In this document: positions 2,321 to 59,800 of the stretch, piece by piece
How positions within the stretch are numbered: position 1 is the first letter of the stretch
Layout of the letters: every line of letters starts with the position of its first letter
DNA from: Patescibacteria group bacterium
GTDB lineage: Bacteria > Patescibacteriota > Minisyncoccia > Moranbacterales > GWC2-37-73
Assembly (NCBI GenBank): GCA_022709565.1
Contig: JAKLIO010000002.1
Coordinates: 1-60,138 of the forward strand
DNA length: 60,138 nucleotides
Direction: 5' to 3'
The notes under the pieces: model-generated
The model's database searches: none
Seen by the model: only the letters and a program-made list of their open reading frames with translations
What the model was told of the DNA's origin: nothing
Program-made: the position numbers and the translations under genes

Positions 2321-3643
2321 CTATTTTTGCCGCTTTGTCAATATGAAATCTTTTCGACCCAATTTGCGATGATAACCAATTGCAAACCGATGCGCTTCGT
2401 CCATAATCCGCTTTATTAAATTTTTATCATTGAAAACTTCCTTAACCTCATTTCTTGGATCATAAATCTTAAATCTTAAATCTAATTTATTGCGTTCCCT
2501 CCCTTTCGCCACTGCTCCAATATTAACTGCTAAACCTAATTCTTCGTGTAAAAGTTTTTCTGCCATATTTAGATGCCCTACTCCGCCGTCTAAAAGAATT
2601 AGGTCGGGCATAGTCCAATTGTTTCCAAATCTTCTAGCAAGCACTTCTCGCATCATACCAACATCATCACTGCCCGAAATAGTTTTGATTTTAAATTTAC
2701 GGTATTCTTTTTTGTTTGGCTCCCCGCCTTCGAAAACCACCATCGAACCAACCGCATTCGTACCGGAGATATTGGAAATATCATAGGCCTCAATTCTCGT
2801 ATTTTGTATCTCGTATTTTGTATTTAGTATTTTAGGTTCAAAATCTTTCGAAATCAATGCGATATCATGAATGTGATTTAGTGCAAAAACTTTATTTCTC
2901 AAATCCGCGGCTTTTTCAAATTCATGCTTTTTGGCCAACGCCTGCATTTCCTTTTCAAGTTTTTTTACTAAGCTTTTCTTTTTTCCTTCCAAAATCATTC
3001 TGATGCCGTGGATATTTTTTTGATAATCTTTCTCCGAAATCGCGCCGGCATATGGTCCGGGACAAAGCCCTATCTGAAAATCCAGACAGCCCTTTTCCGT
3101 TTCTTGCCTATTTGAATGAAAAGGAAAAATTTTACGGATTATTTTCAGCGCAATTTCCATTTGCTTTTTGGAAGTATAGGGACCAAAAACAGCTTTTAGG
3201 TTACCCGCCTCGCGTCGATGAGCGGTCATCTCCGCGAGTCGAGGCGGGTAGCTTTTAGCTTTTAGATTTTTAAAATCAAGATCTGTTGCCCGAAGGATTG
3301 TTATCCTCGGGAATTTTTCTTTCGTAACGACAAAGTATGAAAATGACTTATCGTCTTTAAGATCAATATTATATTTCGGCTGATGTTTTTTGATCAGATT
3401 GCTTTCCAATATCAAAGCTTCCAAAACCGAATCGGTCTGGAAAAATTTTATGTCTGCCACTTTGGGCATCATAGCTTCAATATGGTTTCTGGTTTCCGTG
3501 CCGCGAAAATATGAAGCTACCCGATTTCTGAGATTGGTCGCTTTGCCGATATACAATATTTTTCCGGCTTCATCCCTGAAAATATAGACTCCAGGCGCTG
3601 TTGGCAATTTATTCAGTTTTTCCTTAATTTTTGACATTTCCAT
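2321..3643 (-). CDS. uvrC: Excinuclease ABC subunit C. Short form that ends right after the DEAHRFAI motif, with no (HhH)2 tail. Carries two in-frame repeat insertions.
   Basis: N-terminal GIY-YIG motif (GVYIFRDEAGKILYIGKATNLRNRVASYF), a UVR motif (KHEFEKAADLRNKVFAL), an RNase-H-like region (IEAYDISNISGTNAVGSMVVF) and DEAHRFAIGYHRK near the C-terminus. Confidence 0.9.
   Translation of the reverse strand: MEMSKIKEKLNKLPTAPGVYIFRDEAGKILYIGKATNLRNRVASYFRGTETRNHIEAMMPKVADIKFFQTDSVLEALILESNLIKKHQPKYNIDLKDDKSFSYFVVTKEKFPRITILRATDLDFKNLKAKSYPPRLAEMTAHRREAGNLKAVFGPYTSKKQMEIALKIIRKIFPFHSNRQETEKGCLDFQIGLCPGPYAGAISEKDYQKNIHGIRMILEGKKKSLVKKLEKEMQALAKKHEFEKAADLRNKVFALNHIHDIALISKDFEPKILNTKYEIQNTRIEAYDISNISGTNAVGSMVVFEGGEPNKKEYRKFKIKTISGSDDVGMMREVLARRFGNNWTMPDLILLDGGVGHLNMAEKLLHEELGLAVNIGAVAKGRERNKLDLRFKIYDPRNEVKEVFNDKNLIKRIMDEAHRFAIGYHRKLGRKDFILTKRQK
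2797..2835. repeat. ATAC-periodic AT-rich repeat, in frame inside uvrC (peptide [12 protein letters not shown])
   Basis: The sequence tcgtattttgtatctcgtattttgtatttagtatt belongs to the same word family as 10207-10250, 11651-11700 and 53613-53650. Confidence 0.7.
3204..3248. mobile_element. 45-nt GC-rich palindromic element, copy inside uvrC (peptide PPRLAEMTAHRREAG)
   Basis: cccgcctcgcgtcgatgagcggtcatctccgcgagtcgaggcggg differs at 3 positions from the copy at 51864-51908. It is read in a different frame from the uvrA and uvrB copies. Confidence 0.85.
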
Positions 3644-3717
3644 ATAAACATGCTACATTTTTACTTTAGAAATTACAAGTTCACAAGTTATTTAAAAATA
3701 AAATTGGAGGAAGAATT

Positions 3718-4062
3718 ATGATCATCACGTTACCGCCTTTTTCGCAAAGAGGCACGAATGTAGTAATGAGGATAAAATTAATGATTGAGTTGGCAAATTT
3801 TTTTAAGGAACTAACAACTCAAATCGAATTTTCTGACAAGTTTTCCGATATTATTTTGTTCCATATTACTGGCAATGACAATGAAATAGACATCTGGAAT
3901 TTTGTTAAGAAGAAGAAAAATTTAATTGAAAAAAAATTAAACGGCCAGCCAGCGAAGGTTATTGCCGGCAAAAAAAGAATGATATTAAACCACCAGCAGG
4001 AGGAATACAATGGTAGCAGAAAGGAAAATACCAACACATCCTTATATAAGACCGTGTGTTGA
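3718..4062 (+). CDS. Hypothetical protein (114 aa)
   Basis: ORF with a strong SD (attGGAGGaagaattATG). It overlaps the start of the next ORF. No recognisable motif. Confidence 0.55.
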   Translation: MIITLPPFSQRGTNVVMRIKLMIELANFFKELTTQIEFSDKFSDIILFHITGNDNEIDIWNFVKKKKNLIEKKLNGQPAKVIAGKKRMILNHQQEEYNGSRKENTNTSLYKTVC

Positions 4063-4582: not shown

Positions 4583-7500
4583 CTACTTTCTGCCTAATAC
4601 ATCTTTTAGATATTTCGCTGTGTAGCTTTCTTTATGATATTTGATAATTTCTTCCGGCGGACCGGTCACAATGATGCGGCCGCCATTGTCTCCGCCTTCC
4701 GGGCCCATGTCAATGATCCAATCGGCGGTTTTAATCACATCCATATTGTGCTCAATCACGACCACCGTGTTGCCTGCGTCTACCAACCTATTCAGAACGT
4801 TCAATAATTTTTTAATATCGTCAAAATGCAGTCCAGTGGTCGGCTCGTCCAGAATATACAGCGTGTTACCGGTCGCCAATCTGGAAAGCTCGCTGGCCAG
4901 TTTTATTCTTTGCGCTTCTCCGCCGGACAGCGTGGTTGCGCTTTGTCCAAGTTCAATATAGCCCAAACCGACTTCTTCCAGCACTGCCAAAGGACCGTGA
5001 ATTTTTGGAAAAGCTTCAAAAAATTTCACGCCTTCAGAAACAGTCATTTTTAAAACATCATAAATATTTTTGCCTTTATATTTGACTTGCAAGGTTTCAC
5101 TGTTATATCTTTTTCCATTGCAAACATCGCAGGGCAGATAGACATCCGGCATAAATTGCATTTCAATTTTCAAAAATCCCTCCCCGTTGCAATTGTCGCA
5201 GCGTCCGCCAGGAATATTGAAAGAAAATCTGCCGGGACCATAGCCGCGCAGCTTGGCGTCTTTGGTCTGAGCAAACAATTCACGAATCGAAGTAAAAAAT
5301 CCTGTGTAAGTTGCCGGATTTGAGCGCGGTGTGCGCCCGATCGGCGATTGGTCAATCATAATTACCTTATCAATATTTTCAATCCCGACAATTTCTTTAT
5401 GCCGGCCTGGCGCATCCAAACTGCGGTGCAATTTGTTAGCCAGCGCTTTGTATAATGTTTCTTCAACCAGTGTTGATTTGCCGCTACCGGAAACTCCGGT
5501 CACACAGATAAAAACTTTGAGCGGAAATTCGGCCACAATATTTTTCAGATTATGTTCGCCCGCGCCGCGCACCACGATTCTTTTTTTCTTATTGGCATCG
5601 CGCCGAAACTTGGGAATTTCGATTTCCATTTCGCCGCGCAAATATTTTCCGGTTAAAGATTTTGGATTATTGATCACTTCGGTAGGCAATCCTTGCGCCA
5701 CGATTTCTCCGCCATGTTTGCCCGCTCCCGGTCCGATGTCCACCAGCCAATCCGCGCTGCGCATCATTTCTTCGTCATGTTCAATGACGATTAAGGTGTT
5801 GCCGATTTTTTGCAATTGGCGCAGCGCTTCCATAAGTTTTGAATTATCACGCGCGTGCAAGCCTATTGAAGGTTCGTCTAAAATATATAGGACGCCTACC
5901 AGCTGCGAACCGATCTGCGAAGCCAGGCGGATCCGCTGCGATTCTCCGCCGGACAATGAATAGGCAGCGCGTTGCAATGTCAAATATTCTAAGCCGACAT
6001 TATTGAGAAATTTTAAGCGCGCCACAATTTCTTTGAGAATCCGGCCGGCAATCATTTCCTCGCGCTGCGTCAATTGCAGTTTTTCAAAAAAATTCAAACA
6101 TTCGCGAACACTCAGCGTCGAAGCTTCGTAAATATTTTTCCCGCCGACCGTCACCAATAGCGCTTCTTTTTTGTATCTTGTTCCTTTGCAAGTCGAGCAC
6201 GGCTTTTGCGACATATATTTTTCAATGCCTTCGCGCACCGCATCTGATTCTGTTTTGAAATATCTTTCCTGCAAAAAACCGACCACACCCTGCCAAGTCA
6301 TATAAAATTTCCAATTGGTGCCGGTTTTGGTTTTGACGATGATGGGAATCTCCTCCCCGCCTCGCGTCGACGAGCGGTCGTTTCCGCGAGTCGAGACGGG
6401 CGCCTCATCTTCAGTTGCCATACTTTCATGCTCAGCTGTTCCATAGAGCAGCAAATCCATTTTCTTTTTTGACAAATCTCTAAGGCGCATATTGTCAGGA
6501 ATATTAAAATATCTGGCTGCAGACAAAATCACGCCGCCATAATAATTATTTTTCTTGAAATTCCAAGGCGCCAAGCCGCCTTCCGCCAGAGTCTTATTAT
6601 TGTCCGGCATGACTCTTTCAATATCTATTTCTTTTTTGAATCCCAATCCTTCACAGCCGCTGCAAGCACCAAACGGAGAATTAAAGGAAAATAAACGCGG
6701 TTCCAAATCGGGAAATTCAATATCGTGTATGGAACAAGACAATTTCTGATTAAAAATTTGAACCCCCTCTTTGCTTCTCCCCCTTTTCAAGGGGGAGATT
6801 GAGTGGGGGTCTTTCAGACTCACTATTTTCACTAGTCCCTCCGACATCTTCAGTGCTTTTTCCACGCCTTCAAAAATTCGGCTTAAATTTTCATCGCTAA
6901 TCTTTACTCTGTCGATTACCAAATCAATGCTATGTTTTTTGTAGCGTTCCAATTTAACGTCCTTAAAATCTTCCAATCTGCATAATTTACCGTCCACAAT
7001 CGCTTCGGAGAATCCGCGCTTCCACATATCATCCAAGAGCGCCAGATATTCCCCTTTTCTTTCGCGCACAATCGGTGAAAGAATTTCGATCTGAACACTG
7101 CGCGAAGCGCTTTCGTTTTTCCCTCTCTCCCCTTTAGGGAGAGAGTCGGTGAGAGGGTGATTAATTTCCAAAATCCGACTTACAATTTCATCTGTTGAAA
7201 GCTTGGAAATTTCCCGGCCGCAAACGGGACAATGCGGAATTCCGATCTTAGCATACAAAAGACGCAAATAGTCATGAATTTCCGTCACGGTTCCGACGGT
7301 TGAACGCGGATTGTGCGACGCCGCTTTTTGATCAATTGAAATTGCTGGCGAAAGTCCTTCAATATAATCAACATCCGGCTTATCCATCTGCCCTAAGAAT
7401 TGCCGCGCATAGCTCGACAAACTCTCCAAATATCTCCGTTGCCCCTCGGCAAAAATGGTATCAAAAGCCAGCGTAGATTTTCCTGATCCGGAAATTCCCG

Positions 7501-7591
7501 TAAAAACAATAAACTTATTGCGCGGCAGAATTAAATCGACATTTTTTAGGTTATGCTCCCTTGCGCCTTTTATGATAATTTCATCAGACAT
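4583..7591 (-). CDS. uvrA: Excinuclease ABC subunit A (1002 aa), carrying three in-frame palindromic insertions
   Basis: Two ABC ATPase modules (GISGSGKST and GVSGSGKST Walker A; LSGGE signature twice), zinc modules (CPVCG, CDVCNGKRY) and full-length UvrA architecture. Confidence 0.95.
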   Translation of the reverse strand: MSDEIIIKGAREHNLKNVDLILPRNKFIVFTGISGSGKSTLAFDTIFAEGQRRYLESLSSYARQFLGQMDKPDVDYIEGLSPAISIDQKAASHNPRSTVGTVTEIHDYLRLLYAKIGIPHCPVCGREISKLSTDEIVSRILEINHPLTDSLPKGERGKNESASRSVQIEILSPIVRERKGEYLALLDDMWKRGFSEAIVDGKLCRLEDFKDVKLERYKKHSIDLVIDRVKISDENLSRIFEGVEKALKMSEGLVKIVSLKDPHSISPLKRGRSKEGVQIFNQKLSCSIHDIEFPDLEPRLFSFNSPFGACSGCEGLGFKKEIDIERVMPDNNKTLAEGGLAPWNFKKNNYYGGVILSAARYFNIPDNMRLRDLSKKKMDLLLYGTAEHESMATEDEAPVSTRGNDRSSTRGGEEIPIIVKTKTGTNWKFYMTWQGVVGFLQERYFKTESDAVREGIEKYMSQKPCSTCKGTRYKKEALLVTVGGKNIYEASTLSVRECLNFFEKLQLTQREEMIAGRILKEIVARLKFLNNVGLEYLTLQRAAYSLSGGESQRIRLASQIGSQLVGVLYILDEPSIGLHARDNSKLMEALRQLQKIGNTLIVIEHDEEMMRSADWLVDIGPGAGKHGGEIVAQGLPTEVINNPKSLTGKYLRGEMEIEIPKFRRDANKKKRIVVRGAGEHNLKNIVAEFPLKVFICVTGVSGSGKSTLVEETLYKALANKLHRSLDAPGRHKEIVGIENIDKVIMIDQSPIGRTPRSNPATYTGFFTSIRELFAQTKDAKLRGYGPGRFSFNIPGGRCDNCNGEGFLKIEMQFMPDVYLPCDVCNGKRYNSETLQVKYKGKNIYDVLKMTVSEGVKFFEAFPKIHGPLAVLEEVGLGYIELGQSATTLSGGEAQRIKLASELSRLATGNTLYILDEPTTGLHFDDIKKLLNVLNRLVDAGNTVVVIEHNMDVIKTADWIIDMGPEGGDNGGRIIVTGPPEEIIKYHKESYTAKYLKDVLGRK
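6356..6400. mobile_element. 45-nt GC-rich palindromic element, copy inside uvrA (peptide [15 protein letters not shown])
   Basis: cccgcctcgcgtcgacgagcggtcgtttccgcgagtcgagacggg has 1 mismatch to the copy at 51864-51908. Confidence 0.9.
6763..6811. repeat. C/G-run hairpin element inside uvrA (peptide SISPLKRGRS)
   Basis: Inner perfect hairpin TCTCCCCC-ttttcaa-GGGGGAGA, flanked by CCCCCTC ... GAGTGGGGG. Same design as 7121-7157. Confidence 0.7.
7121..7157. repeat. C/G-run hairpin element inside uvrA (peptide SLPKGERG)
   Basis: CTCTCTCCC-cttta-GGGAGAGAG forms a perfect 9-bp stem, followed by a second GAGAGGG arm. Same design as 6763-6811. Confidence 0.7.
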
Positions 7592-9348: not shown

Positions 9349-11547
9349 CTACTTTATCTGCAATTTCCTAAGCTGCGAAATTTCATCGCGAATAATTGCG
9401 GCGCGTTCAAATTGAAGCGCGCGCGAAGCGTCTTTCATCTCCCTTTCCTTTTGTTTGATGTATCCGGCAATATCCTCTAGCGACTCCAATCTAGTGAAGT
9501 CCGGTGCCGGCATCGGATTAATTTCATGATCCACAATGGATTTAATATTTTTCTTGATGGTTGTCGGTGTTATGCGATGTTTTTGATTATACTGCGCCTG
9601 TATTTTCCGCCTCCTGTTTGTTTCATCGATTGCGCGCCGCATCGAACCGGTTATGCTGTCGGCATACAAAATCACGCGCCCGCTTACATTTCTGGCCGCC
9701 CGTCCGATTGTTTGAATAAGTGAAGTTTCGCTGCGGAGAAATCCTTCTTTGTCTGCGTCCAAAACAGCCACCAAGGAAACTTCCGGCAGGTCCAAACCTT
9801 CGCGCAAAAGATTGACGCCCACCAAAACATCGAACTGCCCGCGCCGAAGTCCTTCCAAAATGCGGATGCGATCCAAAGTTTCCACGTCCGAATGCACATA
9901 TTCGCATTTTATTTTGTGCTCTTTCAAAAAATCCGACAGGTCTTCCGCCATTTTTTTTGTCAGTGTCGTGATCAAAACCCTCCCGCCTGCAACGCTATGC
10001 TGCATTTCATTAGTACTTTCTTTTGTTTGTTTCTTAGAGCCAACAACTTCATTATTTTTATTCAGAAGCGTAGCATTGCGGGCAGGTTCCTTTCTTTCAA
10101 TAACTTTTTCTATTTCACTTAAAACATCTTTTACTTGCCCCTTGGCTGACTTAACAACCAGCTCCGGATCCAGCAATCCCGTTGGACGAATGATTTGCTC
10201 CACGATATTGTATTTCGTATCTCGTATTTTGTATTTCGTATTTTTTGGTTTATTTATAATTTGCGATTTATAATTTGTTTGTTGTTTGTTGTTTGTATCT
10301 TGTGATTTGTCGTATTCATACGGTCCTGGCGTCGCCGAAGTAAAAATCAGCTGCTGAATGTGCTTTTCAAATTCCGCAAATTTGAGCGGGCGATTGTCAA
10401 ACGCGCTCGGCAATCTGAATCCATTCTCTACCAATGATTCTTTACGCGCTCGGTCACCATTGTACATCGCATTTAATTGCGGCACAGTCACGTGAGACTC
10501 ATCAATCACCAACAAAAAATCTCTTCCCCCGCTTCGCGTCGAGGAGCGGTCGTTTCCGCGAGTCGAGGCGAGAAAATAATCCATGAGAGTATAGGGCATT
10601 TCGCCGCTTTTCCGTTCGGTCAAATAGCGGGAATAGTTTTCAATCCCGTTGCAATAGCCGATTTCGCGCATCATTTCCAGATCCTGCTTCGTCCGACGCC
10701 CTAACCTTTCCGCTTCCAGCAATTTATTTTTCTTTTTTAACTCGGCGACCCTTTCTCGCAGCTCTTTCTCTATCTTATCCAACGCTTCTTGCATGACCGG
10801 CTCCGGCACCACGAAATGCTTGGCCGGATAGATCAAAGTTTTTTCGAGATTGCCCAGATTTTCACCTGTCAAAAAATCATATTCCTGAATGCGATCTACC
10901 TTTCCATTTTTCATTTCGATGCGCGTCACCACTTCCCGCCCGGTCGGCATTATTTCAAAAGTGTCACCAGTCACCCGGAATTTCCCCCGACTCAACAGAT
11001 CGCTTCTTTGAAATTGCAATTCAAGAAGTTCTTTCATTTTTTCTTCTCGTTTGAATTCATCGCCCAATGCAATTTCAAAACTGATATCGCGGTAATATTC
11101 CGGCGAACCCAAACCGTAGATACAGGAAACTGACGCTACAATAATAACATCGCTGCGCGAAAGCAAGGCTGAAGTGGCCGCATGGCGTAGCCGATCAATT
11201 TCATCATTAATTTGTGCTTCCTTCTCTATATATGTATCCGATGCGGCCAAGTAGGCTTCCGGCTGATAGTAATCGTAATAGGAAACAAAATATTCCACGG
11301 CATTCTTGGGAAAAAAGGTTCTCAGTTCCTGAACCAATTGCGCTGCTAAAGTTTTGTTGGGTGCGATAACGAGCGTGGGTTTTTGCACTTTTTGAATTAC
11401 GTTGGCAATCGTGAATGTTTTGCCGGATCCGGTCACACCCAAAAGCGTCTGAAATTTTTGCCCCCTTTTTATGCCTTCAACCAACTTCTCAATCGCCTGT
11501 GGTTGATCCCCTGCCGGTTTGAATTTACTGCTTAATTTAAATTTCAT
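9349..11547 (-). CDS. uvrB: Excinuclease ABC subunit B (732 aa), carrying three in-frame insertions
   Basis: Helicase motif I (GVTGSGKTF), DESH box ([11 protein letters not shown]), motifs V and VI ([27 protein letters not shown]...QTIGRAARN) and a C-terminal UVR motif ([16 protein letters not shown]). Confidence 0.95.
9982..10086. repeat. 105-nt insertion with imperfect terminal inverted repeats, inside uvrB
   Basis: The arms CCCGCCTGCAACGCTATGC (9982-10000) and GCGTAGCATTGCGGGCAGG (10068-10086) are complementary at 15 of 19 positions. They encode an extra segment just before the conserved [13 protein letters not shown]. Confidence 0.5.
10207..10315. repeat. ATAC-periodic, low-complexity AT-rich repeat in frame inside uvrB (peptide [12 protein letters not shown] plus a Q/N/K-rich tract)
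   Basis: attgtatttcgtatctcgtattttgtatttcgta followed by ttgtttgttgtttgttgtttg. Same word family as 2797-2835 and 53613-53650. Confidence 0.65.
10528..10572. mobile_element. 45-nt GC-rich palindromic element, copy inside uvrB (peptide [15 protein letters not shown])
   Basis: cccgcttcgcgtcgaggagcggtcgtttccgcgagtcgaggcgag has 3 mismatches to the copy at 51864-51908. Same orientation and frame as the uvrA copy. Confidence 0.9.
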
Positions 11548-11650: not shown

Positions 11651-11700
11651 ATTCGTATTTTGTATTTAGTATTCATACGAGATACCAAAGACTAGATACT
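11651..11700. repeat. Intergenic copy of the ATAC-periodic repeat family
   Basis: attcgtattttgtatttagtattcatacgagataccaaagactagatact uses the same words that are found in frame in uvrB, uvrC and tsaD. Confidence 0.6.
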
Positions 11701-14837: not shown

Positions 14838-15878
14838 TTAGACTGTTTGAATTTTAGCTTTCGCTGAAATTTCCTTGAAAATTTTATCCGCCACTTTCGG
14901 ATTTTCCTTGAGAAAAGCTTTGGCGGCTTCTCTGCCGGCTCCCAACTTCTCTTCTCCAAATGAAAGTGCATTACCTGATTTTTTGACAACTTCATATTTA
15001 ACACCCGTATCCAGAAGATCGCCAGGAAGAGAAATGCCTTCATTATACATAATATCAAATTCGGCTGTTTTGAACGGAGCCGCTACTTTGTTTTTAACAA
15101 TTTTTACTTTTGTCCTGTTGCCCACTATTTCTTCGCCCTTTTTAATCTGCGCGCTTCTTCTGACTTCTATGCGCACTGAGGAATAAAATTTCAAAGCCTG
15201 CCCTCCGGTTGTCGTTTCCGGATTGCCGAACATCACCCCGATTTTCATGCGGATCTGATTAATGAAAATGACAGTCGCATTAGACCGCGCAATGATAGCC
15301 GTTAGTTTCCGAAGAGCCTGCGACATGAGCCGAGCTTGACGGCCCACATGCTGATCGCCCATCTCGCCTTCTATTTCCGCTCTAGGCACCAAAGCAGCCA
15401 CTGAATCCACGACAATCATATCCACTACTCCGCTACGCACCAGCGTTTCCACAATATCCAAAGCCTGCTCGCCGGTATCCGGTTGCGACACTAAAAGATC
15501 TTTAATATTCACGCCGATCTTTTTGGCATATTCCGGATCAAGCGCATGCTCCGCATCCACAAAAGCCGCAGTGCCGCCCAATTTTTGCGAATTAGCAATG
15601 ATATGCAAAGTCAGGGTTGTCTTGCCTGAAGATTCCGGTCCATAAACCTCAATAATTCTGCCTCTTGGCACGCCGCCATTGCCAATGGCAATGTCCAGAG
15701 AAATAGAACCGGTCGGAATTGATTCTACATCCACGTGCCGCACGTCGCCCAGCTTCATTATCATGCCCTCGCCAAATTTTTCCTGAATATCTTCAACCAG
15801 CTTGTCGACTTCTTTTTTTTCTGCGTTCCTTACTTTTTCAACCAGCTCCTTGGGAGCTTTCTTAGTCTTATTAATCAT
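14838..15878 (-). CDS. recA: Recombinase RecA
   Basis: Walker A ([10 protein letters not shown]), Walker B (IVVDSVAAL) and full-length RecA similarity. Confidence 0.97.
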
Positions 15879-19863: not shown

Positions 19864-20532
19864 TTAGAGGCTTATAAATTTCACCGGCAGGACGCGACGA
19901 AAAATTCCCGCGATAAAAATAACATCGGCTTCCGACAAATAGATCGGGTGATGCGCGTCATTGGTAGAATGCGGGAAAAGTCCAATCACGCCTTTGCCCA
20001 TATTTTTATAACGCTTGATAGTGGCCATACCATTAATAACCGCCACCACAACTTTTCCCTCCAAATCAGCTTGCCCTTCAACTTTTTCAAAAATCGCATA
20101 ATCTCCGTCATTGATTCCGTCTTTATTCATCGAGTCTCCGAGCGCTTTGACCGCAAACATTTTTTCCGGTTGCGTTTTGCCAAACAGACTTTTGGAAAGT
20201 TGGAGAAAGTCATCCGCCGGATTGTCTTCGGCATACGCCAGCGCTTCTCCGCAAGAAGCCAGACCGTAGAGCGGAATGGAAAAAACATTTTGCGCGTCGC
20301 CGTAATTTTCATTTTCTACCAGGTATATTTTTTTATTCTCATCACGCGTGATTAGATCTTTCTTTTCCAGCGCTTCGATCACTTGCATGACTGATTTCAT
20401 GCTGTCGCTGCCACCCTTGGAAACCAAGTATTTATGCAAGCGATAGCTGGTTGGCTTCTCGCCGTTTTGCATTGTGATTTCCCGAATGTATTCGAGAATG
20501 TTTTTTTGTTTAGCAGTTAGTTTTTGTTCCAT
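19864..20532 (-). CDS. lexA: LexA-family repressor (S24 peptidase)
   Basis: N-terminal wHTH (LTAKQKNILEYIRE...) and a C-terminal S24 domain with GDSM and a downstream Lys (VVVAVINGMATIKRY). Confidence 0.85.
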   Translation of the reverse strand: MEQKLTAKQKNILEYIREITMQNGEKPTSYRLHKYLVSKGGSDSMKSVMQVIEALEKKDLITRDENKKIYLVENENYGDAQNVFSIPLYGLASCGEALAYAEDNPADDFLQLSKSLFGKTQPEKMFAVKALGDSMNKDGINDGDYAIFEKVEGQADLEGKVVVAVINGMATIKRYKNMGKGVIGLFPHSTNDAHHPIYLSEADVIFIAGIFRRVLPVKFISL

Positions 20533-45022: not shown

Positions 45023-45134
45023 GGGGGAATCTCACGCGCTCGCTTTCGCTCGCTTTTCAAACCCCTCGGTTTGAATAATTCCGCCACGGGAAAACCTAGG
45101 TTTTCCCGACCCCTTTCCTCGTTCGATTTCTCCC
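45023..45134 (-). repeat. tRNA-linked conserved element, copy 1, downstream of tRNA-Gly(UCC). Its distal end repeats GATTCCCCCT from the tRNA T arm.
   Basis: Shares the core GGAAAGGGGTCGGGAAAACCTAGGTTTTCCCG..GG.GGAA.TATT.AAACCG...GGTTT.AAAAGCGA with 51357-51477 and 59718-59800. A 33-nt run is identical to copy 2. Confidence 0.8.
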
Positions 45135-45181
45135 ACCCAAAAAATAAAAACTCTCCTTCTGGGAGAGTTTTTATTTTTTTG

Positions 45182-46776: not shown

Positions 46777-47310
46777 TCAATAAGATAGCGTAAACCGCCA
46801 AAGGTATTCTTTGCAATGCTTGGCATAATCAATACCGATTCGCCTGCCCACCACAATAGATTTCTTTGAAATTTTTTGGGCGGGCTTCTCGATGTATAAA
46901 TTTCCTTTTTTTGTTATGTCTTTCCCATTCAGTTTCCGATCTATTTTCAAAACTTTGCAAAGCTTCCCTGGACCATTGGTTTTTTTATAATCAATGCCTT
47001 CTATTTTTACCGCCCTGATTAATACAGCGGCCGGAAAATCTTTTTTCTCCGTCACAATATTAAGACAATGATACATGCCATAAATCATATAGATATAGGC
47101 ACGTCCCGCGACGCCAAACATAAGTTCCGTTCGCGGCGTTCTGCCTTTGGATGCATGCGAAGCTAAATCATCTTCGCCCATATAGGCTTCCGTTTCGGTG
47201 ATCATGGCTTTTATTGTTCTGCTCCCGATTTTTCTGATCAAAAAACAGCCAAGCAAATCCTTGGCAACATTCAATGTATTTCGATTGTAAAAACCGCGTT
47301 TTAAAATCAT
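46777..47310 (-). CDS. DNA-3-methyladenine glycosylase (MPG/AAG family)
   Basis: LNVAKDLLGCFLIRK...ITETEAYMGEDDLASHASKGRTPRTELMFGVAGRAYIYMIYGMYHCLNIV. Confidence 0.85.
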   Translation of the reverse strand: MILKRGFYNRNTLNVAKDLLGCFLIRKIGSRTIKAMITETEAYMGEDDLASHASKGRTPRTELMFGVAGRAYIYMIYGMYHCLNIVTEKKDFPAAVLIRAVKIEGIDYKKTNGPGKLCKVLKIDRKLNGKDITKKGNLYIEKPAQKISKKSIVVGRRIGIDYAKHCKEYLWRFTLSY

Positions 47311-51356: not shown

Positions 51357-51477
51357 TGGTACCGCTACGGGGAAATCTCACGCACTCACTGTGTTCGCTT
51401 TTGAAACCTCTCGGTTTCAATACTTCCACCCCGGGAAAACCTAGGTTTTCCCGACCCCTTTCCTTGTTCGATTTTCC
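51357..51477 (-). repeat. tRNA-linked conserved element, copy 2, downstream of tRNA-Glu. Its distal 17 nt (51357-51373) duplicate the tRNA-Glu 3' end including CCA.
   Basis: tggtaccgctacgggga at 51357-51373 is identical to 51524-51540. The core is as in copies 1 and 3. Confidence 0.85.
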
Positions 51478-51523
51478 TTAGCATAAAATTAAAAAATCCC
51501 CATGCTGAGAATTTTTAATTTTT

Positions 51524-51598
51524 TGGTACCGCTACGGGGAATCGAACCCCGGTTTACAGGATGAAAACCTGCTGTCCTAACCACTAGACGATAGCGGC
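51524..51598 (-). tRNA. tRNA-Glu (anticodon UUC), CCA encoded
   Basis: Hand-folded cloverleaf: acceptor GCCGCTA/TAGCGGT, anticodon stem GCAGG/CCTGT with loop TTTTCAT, T arm CGGGG-TTCGATT-CCCCG, 3' ACCA. Confidence 0.88.
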
Positions 51599-51606
51599 AA
51601 ATTATT

Positions 51607-51852
51607 CTATTTTAACATTTCTTTTATTTTCTTTCTTCCAGAGGAAGATTTCCAATATTTTTCAGCTTCCCTGGCAAGTTTTATGTGAATACATTTCTCA
51701 ATTATTTGCCAACTAAAATTTCCGAAGTTCTTTGTTGTTTTTACTTCTCCATGCGAATGCTCTTTTATCCTCCTTTCTAAATTATCAGAAAAACCGACGT
51801 AAGTTTTTGTTTTATTTTCATTAATCAGCAAATATACATAATAATATTGCAT
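51607..51852 (-). CDS. GIY-YIG nuclease-family small protein
   Basis: YYVYLLINENKTKTYVGFSDNLERRIKEHSHG...LAREAEKYWK matches the GIY-YIG/URI pattern. Its ATG abuts a tRNA-Glu 5' fragment and its stop lies 8 nt upstream of the intact tRNA-Glu. Confidence 0.8.
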   Translation of the reverse strand: MQYYYVYLLINENKTKTYVGFSDNLERRIKEHSHGEVKTTKNFGNFSWQIIEKCIHIKLAREAEKYWKSSSGRKKIKEMLK

Positions 51853-51931
51853 AACCTGCTGTCCCCGCCTCGCGTCGACGAGCGGTCGTTTCCGCGAGTC
51901 GAGGCGGGCTAACCACTAGACGATAGCGGCA
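51853..51931 (-). pseudogene. Duplicated 5' half of tRNA-Glu (nt 1-33), interrupted by the 45-nt palindromic element
   Basis: 51853-51863 plus 51909-51931 are identical to 51566-51599. A 45-nt insert lies between them. Confidence 0.85.
51864..51908. mobile_element. 45-nt GC-rich palindromic element, reference copy with base-exact boundaries
   Basis: cccgcctcgcgtcgacgagcggtcgtttccgcgagtcgaggcggg has terminal 9-bp inverted repeats CCCGCCTCG/CGAGGCGGG, G/C at 34 of 45 positions, and no stop codon in any of the six frames. Confidence 0.9.
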
Positions 51932-52058
51932 TTTATAAAACGCCTGAAACAATAACAGTGGAAAGCTTAACACGAAAAAAATAAATAGTCAAAGGTCTTA
52001 TAAAAAAGGCTCTGCAAGCAACAAATTAGTTCAAAAATACTCCTCGGCTGGAGTATTT

Positions 52059-52811
52059 TTAGCGATTGTTTTTAATGCCTTGCTGTTTGGCGATTTTCAG
52101 AAGTTTTTTCTTGGCCCGATTGATCAGCGTTCCAATTGTGTTGATCGGTTTTTTCAAAATATCTCCGATTTCTTCATAGGAATATTCCTGAAAATATCTG
52201 AGTTTTAAAACTTGTTTGTACTTGGGCGGAAGCTTTGCCAGCGCTTCATCGATTTCTCTGACAATTTCCATATGTTCCCATTTTTCTTCTGGAATTTCTT
52301 CGTTAGTAGCCGTGTCCAACTTGTCTTTTGTTGTCGATATATCTTCCCAGGAAACGGTATAGCGCTTGTTCCTGCGTTTTAAAAAATTTACGGATTCATT
52401 ATGCGCGATGCGATAGATCCAGGAAGAAAATTTCCGGGAAACGTCAAATTTATCCAGATTTTTATAGGTTTTGGAAAAAACATTCTGCAATATGTCTTCG
52501 GTTTCGCTCTTGTCGCCTACAAAATGAAAAATGTAAGTAAAAAGCTTTTTTGAATAACGCTCTGTGAGATTATAGTAGGCCTCTTTATTTTTCTTTTGAA
52601 TTTGAATCAAAGTAATAAGCTCCGCATCGCTGAGGTCTTTGCAACAAACGTTTTTTTTAGAAGTTAGCCGGCAAGATTGGCTAGCTGGGCATTTTGCTTC
52701 CTGATTCAACAAAATACTCTTACGCTTTGAAGGTTTTTTCTTTGTGACGCCTTTCCTCACGGAAATACGTGGGGCTAGCGCCTTAGGCTGACTTTTCTTT
52801 TTCCGTACCAT
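52059..52811 (-). CDS. ECF-type sigma-70 family factor with a basic N-terminal extension
   Basis: Region 2 (ILQNVFSKTYKNLDKFDVSRKFSSWIYRIAHNESVNFLKRR) and region 4 (LPPKYKQVLKLRYFQEYSYEEIGDILKKPINTIGTLINRAKKKL). Confidence 0.8.
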   Translation of the reverse strand: MVRKKKSQPKALAPRISVRKGVTKKKPSKRKSILLNQEAKCPASQSCRLTSKKNVCCKDLSDAELITLIQIQKKNKEAYYNLTERYSKKLFTYIFHFVGDKSETEDILQNVFSKTYKNLDKFDVSRKFSSWIYRIAHNESVNFLKRRNKRYTVSWEDISTTKDKLDTATNEEIPEEKWEHMEIVREIDEALAKLPPKYKQVLKLRYFQEYSYEEIGDILKKPINTIGTLINRAKKKLLKIAKQQGIKNNR

Positions 52812-52910
52812 ATGATATTATCGTTTAACGATTGCATATGAGAACAGGCCAGAAATATGCCTACAACGCTTCTTTCAAGGGGAACTATATATTATAATAA
52901 TATCACACTT

Positions 52911-54098
52911 ATGTCAAATATACTAATCCTCGCTGTGGAAACATCTTGCGATGAAACCGCTGTTTCTGTCTTGCAATTTCAAGGCAATGATTTAACCATT
53001 CTCGCCAATGAGGTTTCTTCACAGGTAAAGCTGCATGCCAAATGGGGCGGTGTTGTGCCAAATTTGGCCGCACGGGAACATGTGAAAAATATTGTGCCTA
53101 TTTTTAAGCTGGCTTTAAAAAATGCCGGGGTTTCAATGCAAGATATTGATTTTATTGCGGTCACGGAAGGGCCTGGGCTTATTCCCGCTCTCATGGTTGG
53201 CAACAATTTCGCCAAAACACTGGCTTACCTTTGGGGAAAACCGCTGATTGGAATTCATCATATTGAAGGACACATCTACGCGAACTTTGTTCGCGAAATG
53301 ACAAATGATAAATTTCAAATGACAAAAGCTAAGAAGCTAATGACGCTGAAAGCTAATGAAGCTATTTTTCCTGTTTTGTGTTTGGTAGTTTCCGGTGGTC
53401 ATACGCAATTAGTCTTGATGAAAGACCATTTAAAATATGAAATTATCGGCCAAACATTGGATGACGCAGTCGGCGAAGCCTTTGATAAAGTGGCCAGAAT
53501 TTTAGGAATCGGCTATCCCGGAGGACCAGTCGTTGCCCAAAGAGCAATGGAATTTCCAATGACCAATGACCAATTTCCAAACAAATCACAAAAATCAAAT
53601 TCAAAATCTAAAGAATACGAAATACAAGATACAAGATACGAGATACAATTCCCGAGGCCTATGTTAAATAAGCAGGGATTTAATTTTTCTTTTTCCGGGC
53701 TGAAAACGGCAGTTTTGTATGAAACCAAAAAACACCCTGAATTATTAAGTGATAAAAAATATATTGCCGCTGTCTGTCATGAATTTCAGCAAGCCACAAT
53801 TGATGTTTTGATTGCCAAAACCTTGAAAGCTGCGGAAAAATTCAAGCCAAAAACGATTATGCTAGCCGGTGGTGTCAGCGCCAATAAAGAATTGCGAGAA
53901 CAAATGGGCGCAGCTATCTCAAAATCCATACCAAATACTAAATACTGTATACCAGATACTAGTCTGACCGGCGACAACGCCGCCATGATAGCTGCTGCTG
54001 CCGCTTTCCGCTGGCAAAAGATGAACGAATCTCAAAAGAAAAAAGCTCTGAATGGTTGGGAAAATCTCCAGCCATATGCGAATTTGAAATTAAAGTAA
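52911..54098 (+). CDS. tsaD: tRNA N6-adenosine threonylcarbamoyltransferase TsaD (Kae1/Gcp), with two in-frame insertions made of repeat sequence
   Basis: ILAVETSCDETAVSV, HAKWGGVVPNLAAREH, IAVTEGPGLIPALMVG, GIHHIEGH, LVVSGGHTQL, DDAVGEAFDKVARILG, FSFSGLKTAV, LAGGVSANKELR, TGDNAAMIA. ATG at 52911. Confidence 0.9.
   Translation: MSNILILAVETSCDETAVSVLQFQGNDLTILANEVSSQVKLHAKWGGVVPNLAAREHVKNIVPIFKLALKNAGVSMQDIDFIAVTEGPGLIPALMVGNNFAKTLAYLWGKPLIGIHHIEGHIYANFVREMTNDKFQMTKAKKLMTLKANEAIFPVLCLVVSGGHTQLVLMKDHLKYEIIGQTLDDAVGEAFDKVARILGIGYPGGPVVAQRAMEFPMTNDQFPNKSQKSNSKSKEYEIQDTRYEIQFPRPMLNKQGFNFSFSGLKTAVLYETKKHPELLSDKKYIAAVCHEFQQATIDVLIAKTLKAAEKFKPKTIMLAGGVSANKELREQMGAAISKSIPNTKYCIPDTSLTGDNAAMIAAAAAFRWQKMNESQKKKALNGWENLQPYANLKLK
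53291..53365 (+). repeat. tsaD insertion 1 (peptide REMTNDKFQMTKAKKLMTLKANEA)
   Basis: gaaatgacaaatgataaatttcaaatgacaaaagctaagaagctaatgacgctgaaagctaatgaagc combines CAAATGAC words (as at 48470-48600) with AAGCTAA words (as in the intergenic trailers at 28181-28216 and 36419-36447). Confidence 0.6.
53555..53650 (+). repeat. tsaD insertion 2 (peptide PMTNDQFPNKSQKSNSKSKEYEIQDTRYEIQ)
   Basis: ttccaatgaccaatgaccaatttccaaacaaatcacaaaaatcaaattcaaaatctaaag resembles 48490-48530. It is followed by the ATAC-periodic unit gaatacgaaatacaagatacaagatacgagatacaa. Confidence 0.65.
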
Positions 54099-59671: not shown

Positions 59672-59717
59672 CATTTTTATCTCATAACCACAATAAATTT
59701 CAATTGAAAATTGAAAT

Positions 59718-59800
59718 GGGAAAGGGGTCGGGAAAACGGGAGTTTTCCCGGGGTGGAAATATTAAAACCGCAAGGTTTTAAGGAGGAGCAAAGCGACGAC
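59718..59800 (+). repeat. tRNA-linked conserved element, copy 3, between tRNA-Lys and tRNA-Arg
   Basis: gggaaaggggtcgggaaaacgggagttttcccggggtggaaatattaaaaccgcaaggtttta...aaagcga matches the cores of copies 1 and 2. It is in the same orientation relative to its upstream tRNA and directly abuts the tRNA-Arg 5' end. Confidence 0.75.

Follow-up and report, generated by a model that had tools for sequence, protein, structure and literature searches.

A 45-nt GC-rich palindrome that splits a piece of a tRNA-Glu gene in a Moranbacterales genome belongs, we are confident, to a lineage-wide family of palindromic insertions in the Moranbacteria, one that is mobile and resembles repetitive extragenic palindromic (REP) sequences and Rickettsia palindromic elements (RPEs). 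We analyzed the element in a 60,138-nt stretch of DNA (contig JAKLIO010000002.1 of assembly GCA_022709565.1; hereafter, the window), where its focal copy occupies positions 51864..51908, within a displaced 5' fragment of tRNA-Glu; it breaks the D-arm there between tRNA positions 22 and 23. The fragment leads into a gene for a small GIY-YIG nuclease, which is followed by the intact tRNA-Glu; we refer to this arrangement as the cassette. Other copies of the same palindrome lie in frame within housekeeping genes, especially those for DNA repair.

The palindrome and the tRNA-Glu cassette

The 34 nt at 51566-51599 consist of the first 33 bases of the intact tRNA-Glu and one leader base. A sequence-only reading of the window had noticed that these bases recur in two pieces separated by exactly 45 nt, and a script check reproduced the match at 34/34 bases. 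Part A of the displaced fragment (one leader base and tRNA positions 1-22; 51909..51931, minus strand) is identical to 51577-51599, and part B' (positions 23-33; 51853..51863, minus strand) abuts the ATG of the GIY-YIG open reading frame (ORF). The insert is as the same reading described it. G/C occupies 34 of its 45 positions, compared with 33% GC in the flanks, its terminal inverted repeats (CCCGCCTCG/CGAGGCGGG) are perfect over 9 bp, there is no target-site duplication, and none of the six frames contains a stop codon. Placement of the junction is ambiguous by 1 nt because the insert begins with C and the next tRNA base is also C. Freedom from stops was rejected as evidence of design, since 31.5% of composition-matched shuffles are likewise stop-free.

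Allowing up to three mismatches, the window contains four copies of the 45-mer, all on the plus strand, where shuffled sequences lead one to expect 0.00. The flanks of the four copies are unrelated, and their likeness ends exactly at the 45-nt borders. The focal copy folds as a plain hairpin (about -15 kcal/mol as DNA and -25 kcal/mol as RNA); its fold contains no bulge-helix-bulge, known ribozyme or intron structure, and neither gathering-threshold nor permissive Rfam searches returned a family that matches it.

The nuclease gene (51607..51852, minus strand; Pfam PF01541, E 1.9e-13) encodes an 81-aa protein of the small UPF0213/SLX1 type and lies between the hairpin-split tRNA half and the intact tRNA-Glu(UUC), which was called by ARAGORN at 51524..51598 on the minus strand and scores 65.7 bits against the Rfam tRNA model. 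Its start codon follows directly on position 33 of the tRNA fragment, its stop codon lies 7 nt before the intact tRNA, and the motif CAGG in part B' may serve as its ribosome-binding site. The catalytic domain takes up residues 3-75, leaving no separate DNA-binding domain, and the catalytic residues Tyr7, Tyr18, Gly20, Arg28, His32 and Glu64 are invariant among relatives. The nearest solved structures are those of UPF0213 proteins (PDB 1zg2, E 1.2e-7) and SLX1. The conserved 3' end of the ORF (the AEKYWKSSSGRKKIKE region; 51606-51653, minus strand) also gave a sub-threshold Rfam match to "6A RNA," scoring 28 bits where the gathering threshold is 41.2.

Upstream of the displaced fragment, a promoter-like TTGACT-N17-TAAGCT is seen in the sequence at 51964..51992 (minus strand) and is conserved in loci that lack the cassette. 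From it we infer a promoter for the unit of fragment, ORF and tRNA; a strict consensus promoter scan did not call this motif, and a terminator scan returned none. Comparison with two cassette-free loci (L124 and L128; L-numbers are our labels for compared loci) places the displaced fragment at its native distance from the promoter-like sequence.

These findings change how two earlier ideas should be understood. The split tRNA half had been taken for a free-standing duplicate struck by chance; it is instead the displaced 5' piece of tRNA-Glu and the leader of the GIY-YIG gene. The two tRNA halves had also been presented as a filled and an empty version of one site. The 45-nt split is real, but the two copies are paralogous pieces of a single cassette and not alleles. 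We rejected a tRNA intron or split tRNA as a description of the locus, given that the ORF has an intact tRNA after it and the fragment stops at position 33, at the ATG.

Orthologous loci provide a true comparison of filled and empty states. The cassette is present at the tRNA-Glu locus in the window and in L011, L120, L122/L028 and L123. In L124/L125, L128 and L130, the locus consists only of a sigma factor gene, the promoter and tRNA-Glu, with no fragment, hairpin or ORF. Because the filled and empty loci have the upstream promoter-like sequence in common, the unit of about 330 nt must be the insertion, and the fragment with the hairpin must be what is left of the native 5' end of the old tRNA. 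A small GIY-YIG gene thus entered tRNA-Glu and carried a replacement 5' part with it, hence the position of the intact tRNA after the ORF. Two routes fit: a single insertion of hairpin, tRNA 23-33, ORF and tRNA 1-22 at D-arm position 22/23, or insertion of the ORF at 33/34 with 5' duplication, followed by a separate insertion of the hairpin. The final structure agrees with both alike. The ORF can also be lost, as in L026. STA_10 has solo 45-mers (L013, L023 and L029) even though its tRNA-Glu locus is empty; at that locus (L128, 2480-2760), tRNA-Glu is followed by two inverted tRNA-Glu 3' ends (tggcgccaaggggaatcggac) that bracket about 180 nt of GC-richer DNA.

Copies of the palindrome in Moranbacteria

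We searched bacterial and archaeal contigs, one genome per species, with a 29-nt core pattern of the 45-mer that contains 25 fixed bases. The element is not confined to the four copies in the window: the pattern matched 43 further loci, nearly all of them in metagenome-assembled genomes of Candidatus Moranbacteria, uncultured bacteria of tiny size in the Candidate Phyla Radiation (CPR), and representing about 25 species. At all 43 loci, the element is 45 nt long and its flanks are unrelated, bringing the total to 47 copies of 45 nt. A scan of viral contigs with the same core gave no match. A profile search found further variants, including a 42-nt deletion variant, of which L002 and L037 carry additional copies. 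Two loci contain composites: a related 30-nt palindrome lies within a 45-mer in L026, and two related 42-nt palindromes lie within a 45-mer in L008. Members of the family therefore insert into each other.

The L008 locus, from UBA2282, contains two copies of the tRNA-Glu(CUC) 5' region, each with 100 nt of upstream sequence (3380-3830 and 6117-6235). One copy, a truncated one, leads to a GIY-YIG ORF and has the 45-mer that contains the two nested palindromes. The other is a full-length tRNA-Glu(CUC) with a plain 45-mer at position 22/23, which ARAGORN calls only after removal of the insert in silico or by borrowing part of it.

The earlier view of the 45-mer as a miniature insertion element with base-exact ends, dispersed and without target duplication, was borne out. 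No target-site duplication was found at 35 independent sites, and target preference is weak (a purine, then the insertion point, then G/C followed by A). A 9-nt direct repeat around the uvrC copy was treated as a coincidence, as other sites lack it. Insertion takes place at the DNA level, in either orientation, and leaves exact ends and no duplication. The ends themselves read CCCG...CGGG, and CGTC occurs only internally, at positions 10-13.

The sequence of the element is strongly conserved. At sites shared between genomes, it is 93-100% identical, compared with 64-90% for the 150-nt flanks, a comparison that is biased by the search pattern. Even so, the 16 terminal positions that lie outside the fixed pattern deviate from the consensus by only 2.5% over the 47 copies. 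The nucleotide sequence itself is under constraint, for which protein recognition, hairpin function and conversion from a master copy are candidates. We make no claim of covariation in the stem, where one variant pair is clearly compensated (C16T with G25A in the uvrC copy) and most other variants are not.

Long ORFs contain about two thirds of the 47 copies. In the window, the three copies besides the focal one are in frame in uvrC (3204..3248, three mismatches; gene at 2321-3643, minus strand), where the insert is read as PPRLAEMTAHRREAG; in uvrA (6356..6400, one mismatch; gene at 4583-7591, minus strand), where it adds 15 residues; and in uvrB (10528..10572, three mismatches; gene at 9349-11547, minus strand), where it adds 15 residues just before the DESH box. 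In alignments with solved UvrB structures, the last of these appears as a clean 15-residue gap. Orthologous empty sites, the proposed check on mobility, were found for such copies. UvrB has an insert at DYF^DFLL in the window but not in L013, which instead has one at VIK^SAKGQ, a site that is empty in the window. UvrC is filled at NNW^ in L021, L034 and L037 and empty there in the window. In UvrA, the window and L002 have the insert at an identical codon boundary, between flanks that are only about 65% identical.

With orthologues collapsed and 42-nt variants counted, there are about 31 independent coding insertions, each of 45 or 42 nt. Among the 26 clearest independent sites, 21 use a single orientation and codon phase that reads PASTRG[D/N/E/G]DRSSTRGG. 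The non-coding relatives in tRNA fragments, by comparison, comprise 22 distinct hairpins whose lengths fall in every residue class modulo 3 (8, 5 and 9). Because the coding copies are 45 or 42 nt long, stop-free and nearly always in one frame, we read them as encoding a short hydrophilic loop that is translated. This pattern is what translation combined with selection on the encoded loop would predict, and it argues against removal of the insert at the RNA level. A protein database search with the encoded peptide gave no match, the word index used being ill-suited to a 15-aa motif.

The host proteins have housekeeping functions. DNA repair and replication are represented by UvrA (two sites), UvrB (two), UvrC (three), RecG (two), RecJ, the delta' subunit of Pol III and a NUDIX protein, and tRNA-related functions by TrpRS, PheT, the CCA-adding enzyme, TsaE and an ELP3-like radical-SAM protein (two sites). 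Other hosts are AtpA, AtpG, GlmS, thioredoxin reductase, FemAB and rubrerythrin. Repair and replication genes hold 12 of the roughly 31 coding insertions, compared with 1-2% of such a genome by rough estimate. The 60-kb window is itself rich in DNA repair genes: in addition to uvrA, uvrB and uvrC, it holds genes for RecA (14838-15878), a LexA-like S24 peptidase (19864-20532) and a methylpurine DNA glycosylase (46777-47310). Local hopping of the palindrome within this repair-rich region could contribute to the bias toward repair genes.

Further inserts were seen in the same proteins. The N-terminal domain of the L034 UvrC contains another insert (PPRHLTPSPSPYKGEGGQTS) at the place where the L037 UvrC has a 42-nt copy of the palindrome, and the window UvrB (9349-11547) contains additional low-complexity inserts. 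In this lineage, insertions of several types seem to be present in the nucleotide excision repair proteins. An AT-rich repeat, TCGTATTTTGTATTTCGTATTT, had eight matches compared with 0.01 expected and is in frame in uvrC, uvrB and tsaD. Its occurrences include 2797-2832, 10208-10243, 11653-11674 and 53613-53641, and its peptides include one of 19 residues and EYEIQDTRYEIQ. Housekeeping proteins of this genome therefore have another type of repeat-derived insert besides the palindrome.

The GIY-YIG nuclease as candidate partner

We used 76 metagenome loci that had been fetched with an alignment of the GIY-YIG proteins alone, without use of the hairpin. Most of the ORFs, which have about 80-95 aa, lie directly beside a tRNA gene of the same strand, for Glu, Gln, Leu, Phe, Asn, Asp or Gly. 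The start codon is almost always preceded by a 5' tRNA fragment whose D-arm is broken by a GC-rich palindrome. The arms of this palindrome are constant (CCCGCCTCG...CGAGGCGGG), its interior and length vary (29-65 nt), and it lies 10-45 nt from the ATG. A mirror form also exists, in which the order is intact tRNA, ORF and 3' fragment and the hairpin of that fragment is found in the T-arm or anticodon arm (L070, L086 and L055), and some loci have additional dead tRNA copies with one or two hairpins (L081, L119 and L059). The intact tRNA of a cassette never bears a hairpin. A hairpin in the displaced tRNA piece is the rule in such cassettes and not an accident.

The nuclease and the hairpin also vary together. 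GIY-YIG clades follow tRNA identity, with Glu, Gln, Leu and Gly clades, and hairpins of a second class (GAGCGAGGCTCGCC...GGCGGCCCGCTC) occur only in one clade, which is linked to tRNA-Gly; the division into class 1 and class 2 follows the GIY-YIG tree. In this tRNA-Gly clade (L088, L091, L095, L101, L102, L105, L113 and others), the ORF lies downstream of tRNA-Gly and is preceded by the class 2 hairpin, whose outer arms resemble the tRNA-Gly 3' end.

Based on these associations, we propose that the hairpin acts as the cis-acting DNA partner, either recognition structure or substrate, of an SLX1/UPF0213-type nuclease that is probably structure-specific. The pairing would be comparable to that of REPs with REP-associated tyrosine transposases (RAYTs), except that the enzyme is of another type. 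Nicking or breakage of DNA by the nuclease would allow new sites to receive copies of the cassette and of solo hairpins, the solo 45-mers would be non-autonomous copies, and selection would purge insertions outside dead tRNA pieces and tolerated protein loops. We hold the parts of this proposal with different degrees of belief. That the palindrome family is functionally tied to the GIY-YIG/tRNA cassette seems to us rather probable. That the nuclease itself mobilises the palindromes is a tentative idea, toward which we are somewhat skeptical. The complete account, of a REP/RPE-like mobile palindrome with its home copy in a tRNA-nested GIY-YIG cassette and the nuclease as its likely partner, is one we consider evenly balanced between right and wrong. 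The sequence-only reading had stated that the window has no transposase and had named no mobilising enzyme. The first part holds, as no transposase or integrase domain (including Y1/HUH) is found among the 34 window ORFs; to leave the window without any candidate enzyme is too strong, given the nuclease gene located 11 nt from the palindrome.

Several points weigh against this account. The 81-aa protein has no DNA-binding domain. The link between nuclease and hairpin, which we consider likely, is drawn from co-occurrence and co-variation. Hairpin orientation relative to the ORF varies. An identical 45-mer adjoins GIY-YIG proteins that are only 44% identical, in Glu and Leu cassettes, which strict co-inheritance explains no better than a genome-wide pool of hairpins that land in tRNA fragments. 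Although its sequence is that of the hairpin-bearing fragment, the intact tRNA is never struck, and purifying selection is needed as an extra assumption. The transposase search covered the ORFs of the window, and a Y1/RAYT-type enzyme may lie elsewhere in the genome. Finally, solo copies in genes were found only for the Moranbacteria subfamily of 45 and 42 nt, with none in about 165 kb around other cassettes.

Some of these points would be expected if another agent moves the hairpins, whether a Y1/RAYT-like transposase encoded at another place in the genome or the recombination and repair machinery of the host. Hairpins would then accumulate in dead tRNA pieces as some of the rare neutral targets of a compact genome, and the GIY-YIG gene would be an unrelated passenger of tRNA loci, of the homing type. 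The 44% identity of proteins that share one 45-mer speaks for such an agent, as do the many positions and both orientations of hairpins in the fragments, the solo 45-mers of STA_10 with its empty tRNA-Glu locus, and the precedent of REPs with the CGTC tag, which lack a flanking dedicated transposase (PMC3733652). On the other hand, hairpin class tracks GIY-YIG clade, hairpins are far denser in the tRNA fragments, which are about 30 nt long, than in the rest of the intergenic DNA (the other spacers of the window have none), and the window ORFs show no HUH or transposase domain. We judge this explanation unlikely, while taking it seriously.

It is improbable, in our view, that the hairpin is simply kept for a benefit in cis, with the copies in genes as by-products. 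The benefit could be to break the 34-nt direct tRNA repeat, blocking deletion of the ORF by recombination or slippage, or to give the nuclease mRNA a 5' end that is more stable or insulated. The hairpin does always split the repeated tRNA segment, leaving only 22 and 11 nt of uninterrupted identity in the window, and loss of the ORF is possible, as L026 shows. Its position 10-45 nt before the ATG and the strength of the RNA hairpins (-22 to -26 kcal/mol) would suit a role in the mRNA. A cis benefit nevertheless leaves unexplained how the hairpin came to the site and why copies inside genes conserve their sequence, and it is compatible with the nuclease-partner proposal rather than exclusive of it.

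The 45-mer could also be imagined as an intron-like intervening sequence removed from tRNA and mRNA, such that the hosts and the tRNA-Glu(CUC) of L008 stay functional. The full-length L008 tRNA with its 45-mer at 22/23 and the very strong nucleotide conservation would be in keeping with removal. We find it very hard to credit, however, because the coding copies are of 45 or 42 nt, stop-free and in one frame at 21/26 sites where non-coding relatives have any length, because nothing is conserved in the flanks, and because there is no bulge-helix-bulge, ribozyme or intron fold, or Rfam match. Chance similarity or an assembly artefact, the latter raised as a concern by the sequence-only reading, can practically be discounted, with four copies in the window against 0.00 expected and the same architecture in independent assemblies from several studies (L011, L028, L044/L045, L120, L122 and L123).

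Other features of the window were also noted. A repeat of about 155 nt, which we call X, lies directly 3' of tRNA genes: after Glu at 51357-51523 (minus strand), after Gly(tcc) at 45023-45181 (minus strand), and between Lys and Arg at 59706-59778 (plus strand). It contains hairpins of its own, cgggaaaacctaggttttcccg and gaaaccgagaggtttc. The copy after tRNA-Glu, of about 147 nt, is followed by a duplicated tRNA-Glu 3' end (51357-51376, ccccgtagcggtacca), and X is absent at this place in L011 and L120, making another filled and empty pair. The cumulative GC skew of the window reaches its minimum at about 52 kb (approximately 52000-54000), and genes lie on the minus strand to the left and on the plus strand to the right. 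The skew and the switch in gene orientation suggest a replication origin or terminus beside the cassette.

Relation to known systems

The 45-mer is best filed with the in-frame palindromes of housekeeping genes, namely RPEs and intragenic REPs; both its kind and its bias toward repair genes were already known. RPEs are palindromic repeats that lie in frame in unrelated housekeeping genes, for which a transposase has not been identified (PMC10969869; PMC3733652). Like RPEs, the Moranbacteria element is read through in a conserved frame as an extra peptide and also occurs outside genes. RPEs are about 100-150 bp long and found in Rickettsia, whereas the present element has 45 or 42 nt and is found in the CPR, is near-invariant across about 25 species, and has a home copy tied to the GIY-YIG/tRNA cassette.

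REPs are defined by a conserved GTAG or CGTC tetranucleotide at one end (PMC3733652), and the 45-mer has no such end tag. REPs are also mainly extragenic, and the 45-mer is mostly intragenic. The likeness consists of a short, GC-rich, imperfect palindrome with many dispersed and near-identical copies, conserved within a lineage. Intragenic REPs of other phyla are concentrated in replication and global repair genes (UvrABCD, RecBCD and polymerases) and in tRNA-related enzymes (PMC3733652), and the repair and replication bias is common to them and the Moranbacteria 45-mer. This bias thus extends to the CPR and looks like a general property. As in REPtrons, the repeat lies physically beside one gene of nuclease type, but the REPtron gene is a RAYT, a Y1 tyrosine transposase, and a Y1 domain is found in none of the 34 window ORFs; the gene here encodes a GIY-YIG nuclease, and the cassette hairpin is one-sided and lies inside a tRNA fragment.

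In the open-access literature, we found no earlier account of GIY-YIG genes that are nested in tRNA genes and accompanied by hairpins, nor of palindromes in frame within CPR genes, which is not proof of absence; nor did we find described the apparent breadth of the cassette in CPR metagenomes or the extreme use of a single frame. Palindromic repeats within genes have been known for more than 20 years, and their mobility is partly understood, with several families lacking a known enzyme. A palindrome that is tied both physically and phylogenetically to a tiny nuclease gene therefore offers a candidate enzyme and a testable question of cutting or binding. The furthest-reaching interpretation is a previously unrecognised minimal mobile system, in which a GIY-YIG nuclease of about 80 aa parasitises tRNA genes via partial-duplication cassettes, with a GC-rich hairpin as its cis partner, and in which the Moranbacteria hairpin escaped as a 45-nt, stop-free, translated insert in housekeeping genes, especially those for DNA repair. 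We regard this interpretation as doubtful. If true, REP/RPE-like palindromes would have an enzyme partner outside Y1/RAYT for the first time, and there would be a candidate answer to why CGTC REPs and RPEs have no dedicated transposase. For annotation, the 15-aa PASTRG...STRGG inserts in CPR housekeeping proteins can be labeled as repeat-derived, a tRNA fragment and the small "GIY-YIG family" ORF next to it belong to a single cassette, and hairpin-bearing tRNA copies are missed by tRNA gene finders.

Other mobile elements resemble the palindrome or the cassette in part. Miniature inverted-repeat transposable elements share the inverted repeat; the 45-mer differs in having no target duplication at 35 sites, and no insertion sequence was found in the window. 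Insertion without duplication is shared with the IS200/IS605 family, which differs in inserting 3' of a fixed tetra- or pentanucleotide and in having a Y1 TnpA, whereas the 45-mer shows only a weak preference and the window has no Y1 domain. Integrative elements that target tRNA genes and duplicate their attachment site likewise keep a functional tRNA and leave a partial tRNA duplicate flanking the insert. The cassette differs from them in lacking an integrase, in its length of about 330 nt, and in having a duplicate that is a 5' or 3' part interrupted by a hairpin.

Free-standing GIY-YIG homing endonuclease genes are exemplified by those for the Seg proteins of phage T4, including SegB in the tRNA gene cluster, and by I-TevI. 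The cassette gene resembles these in lying in or near a conserved gene, in its conserved catalytic residues, in its presence and absence among relatives, and in its target-specific clades. Unlike them, the cassette protein of about 80 aa consists of the catalytic domain only, with no separate DNA-binding domain for a long site, its insertion duplicates part of a tRNA, and a hairpin repeat is its constant companion. Among solved structures, UPF0213 proteins (BH0048 and EF2693) and SLX1 match best. The structure-specific endonuclease activity of SLX1 would fit a hairpin or cruciform substrate, and the literature searched described no link of UPF0213 proteins to repeats or tRNA genes. The GC clusters and "byp" elements of yeast mitochondria are likewise short, GC-rich, mobile palindromes in an AT-rich genome, found also in coding sequence. 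They are organellar, and byps are bypassed by the ribosome, in contrast to the 45-mer, whose length, frame and freedom from stops indicate read-through.

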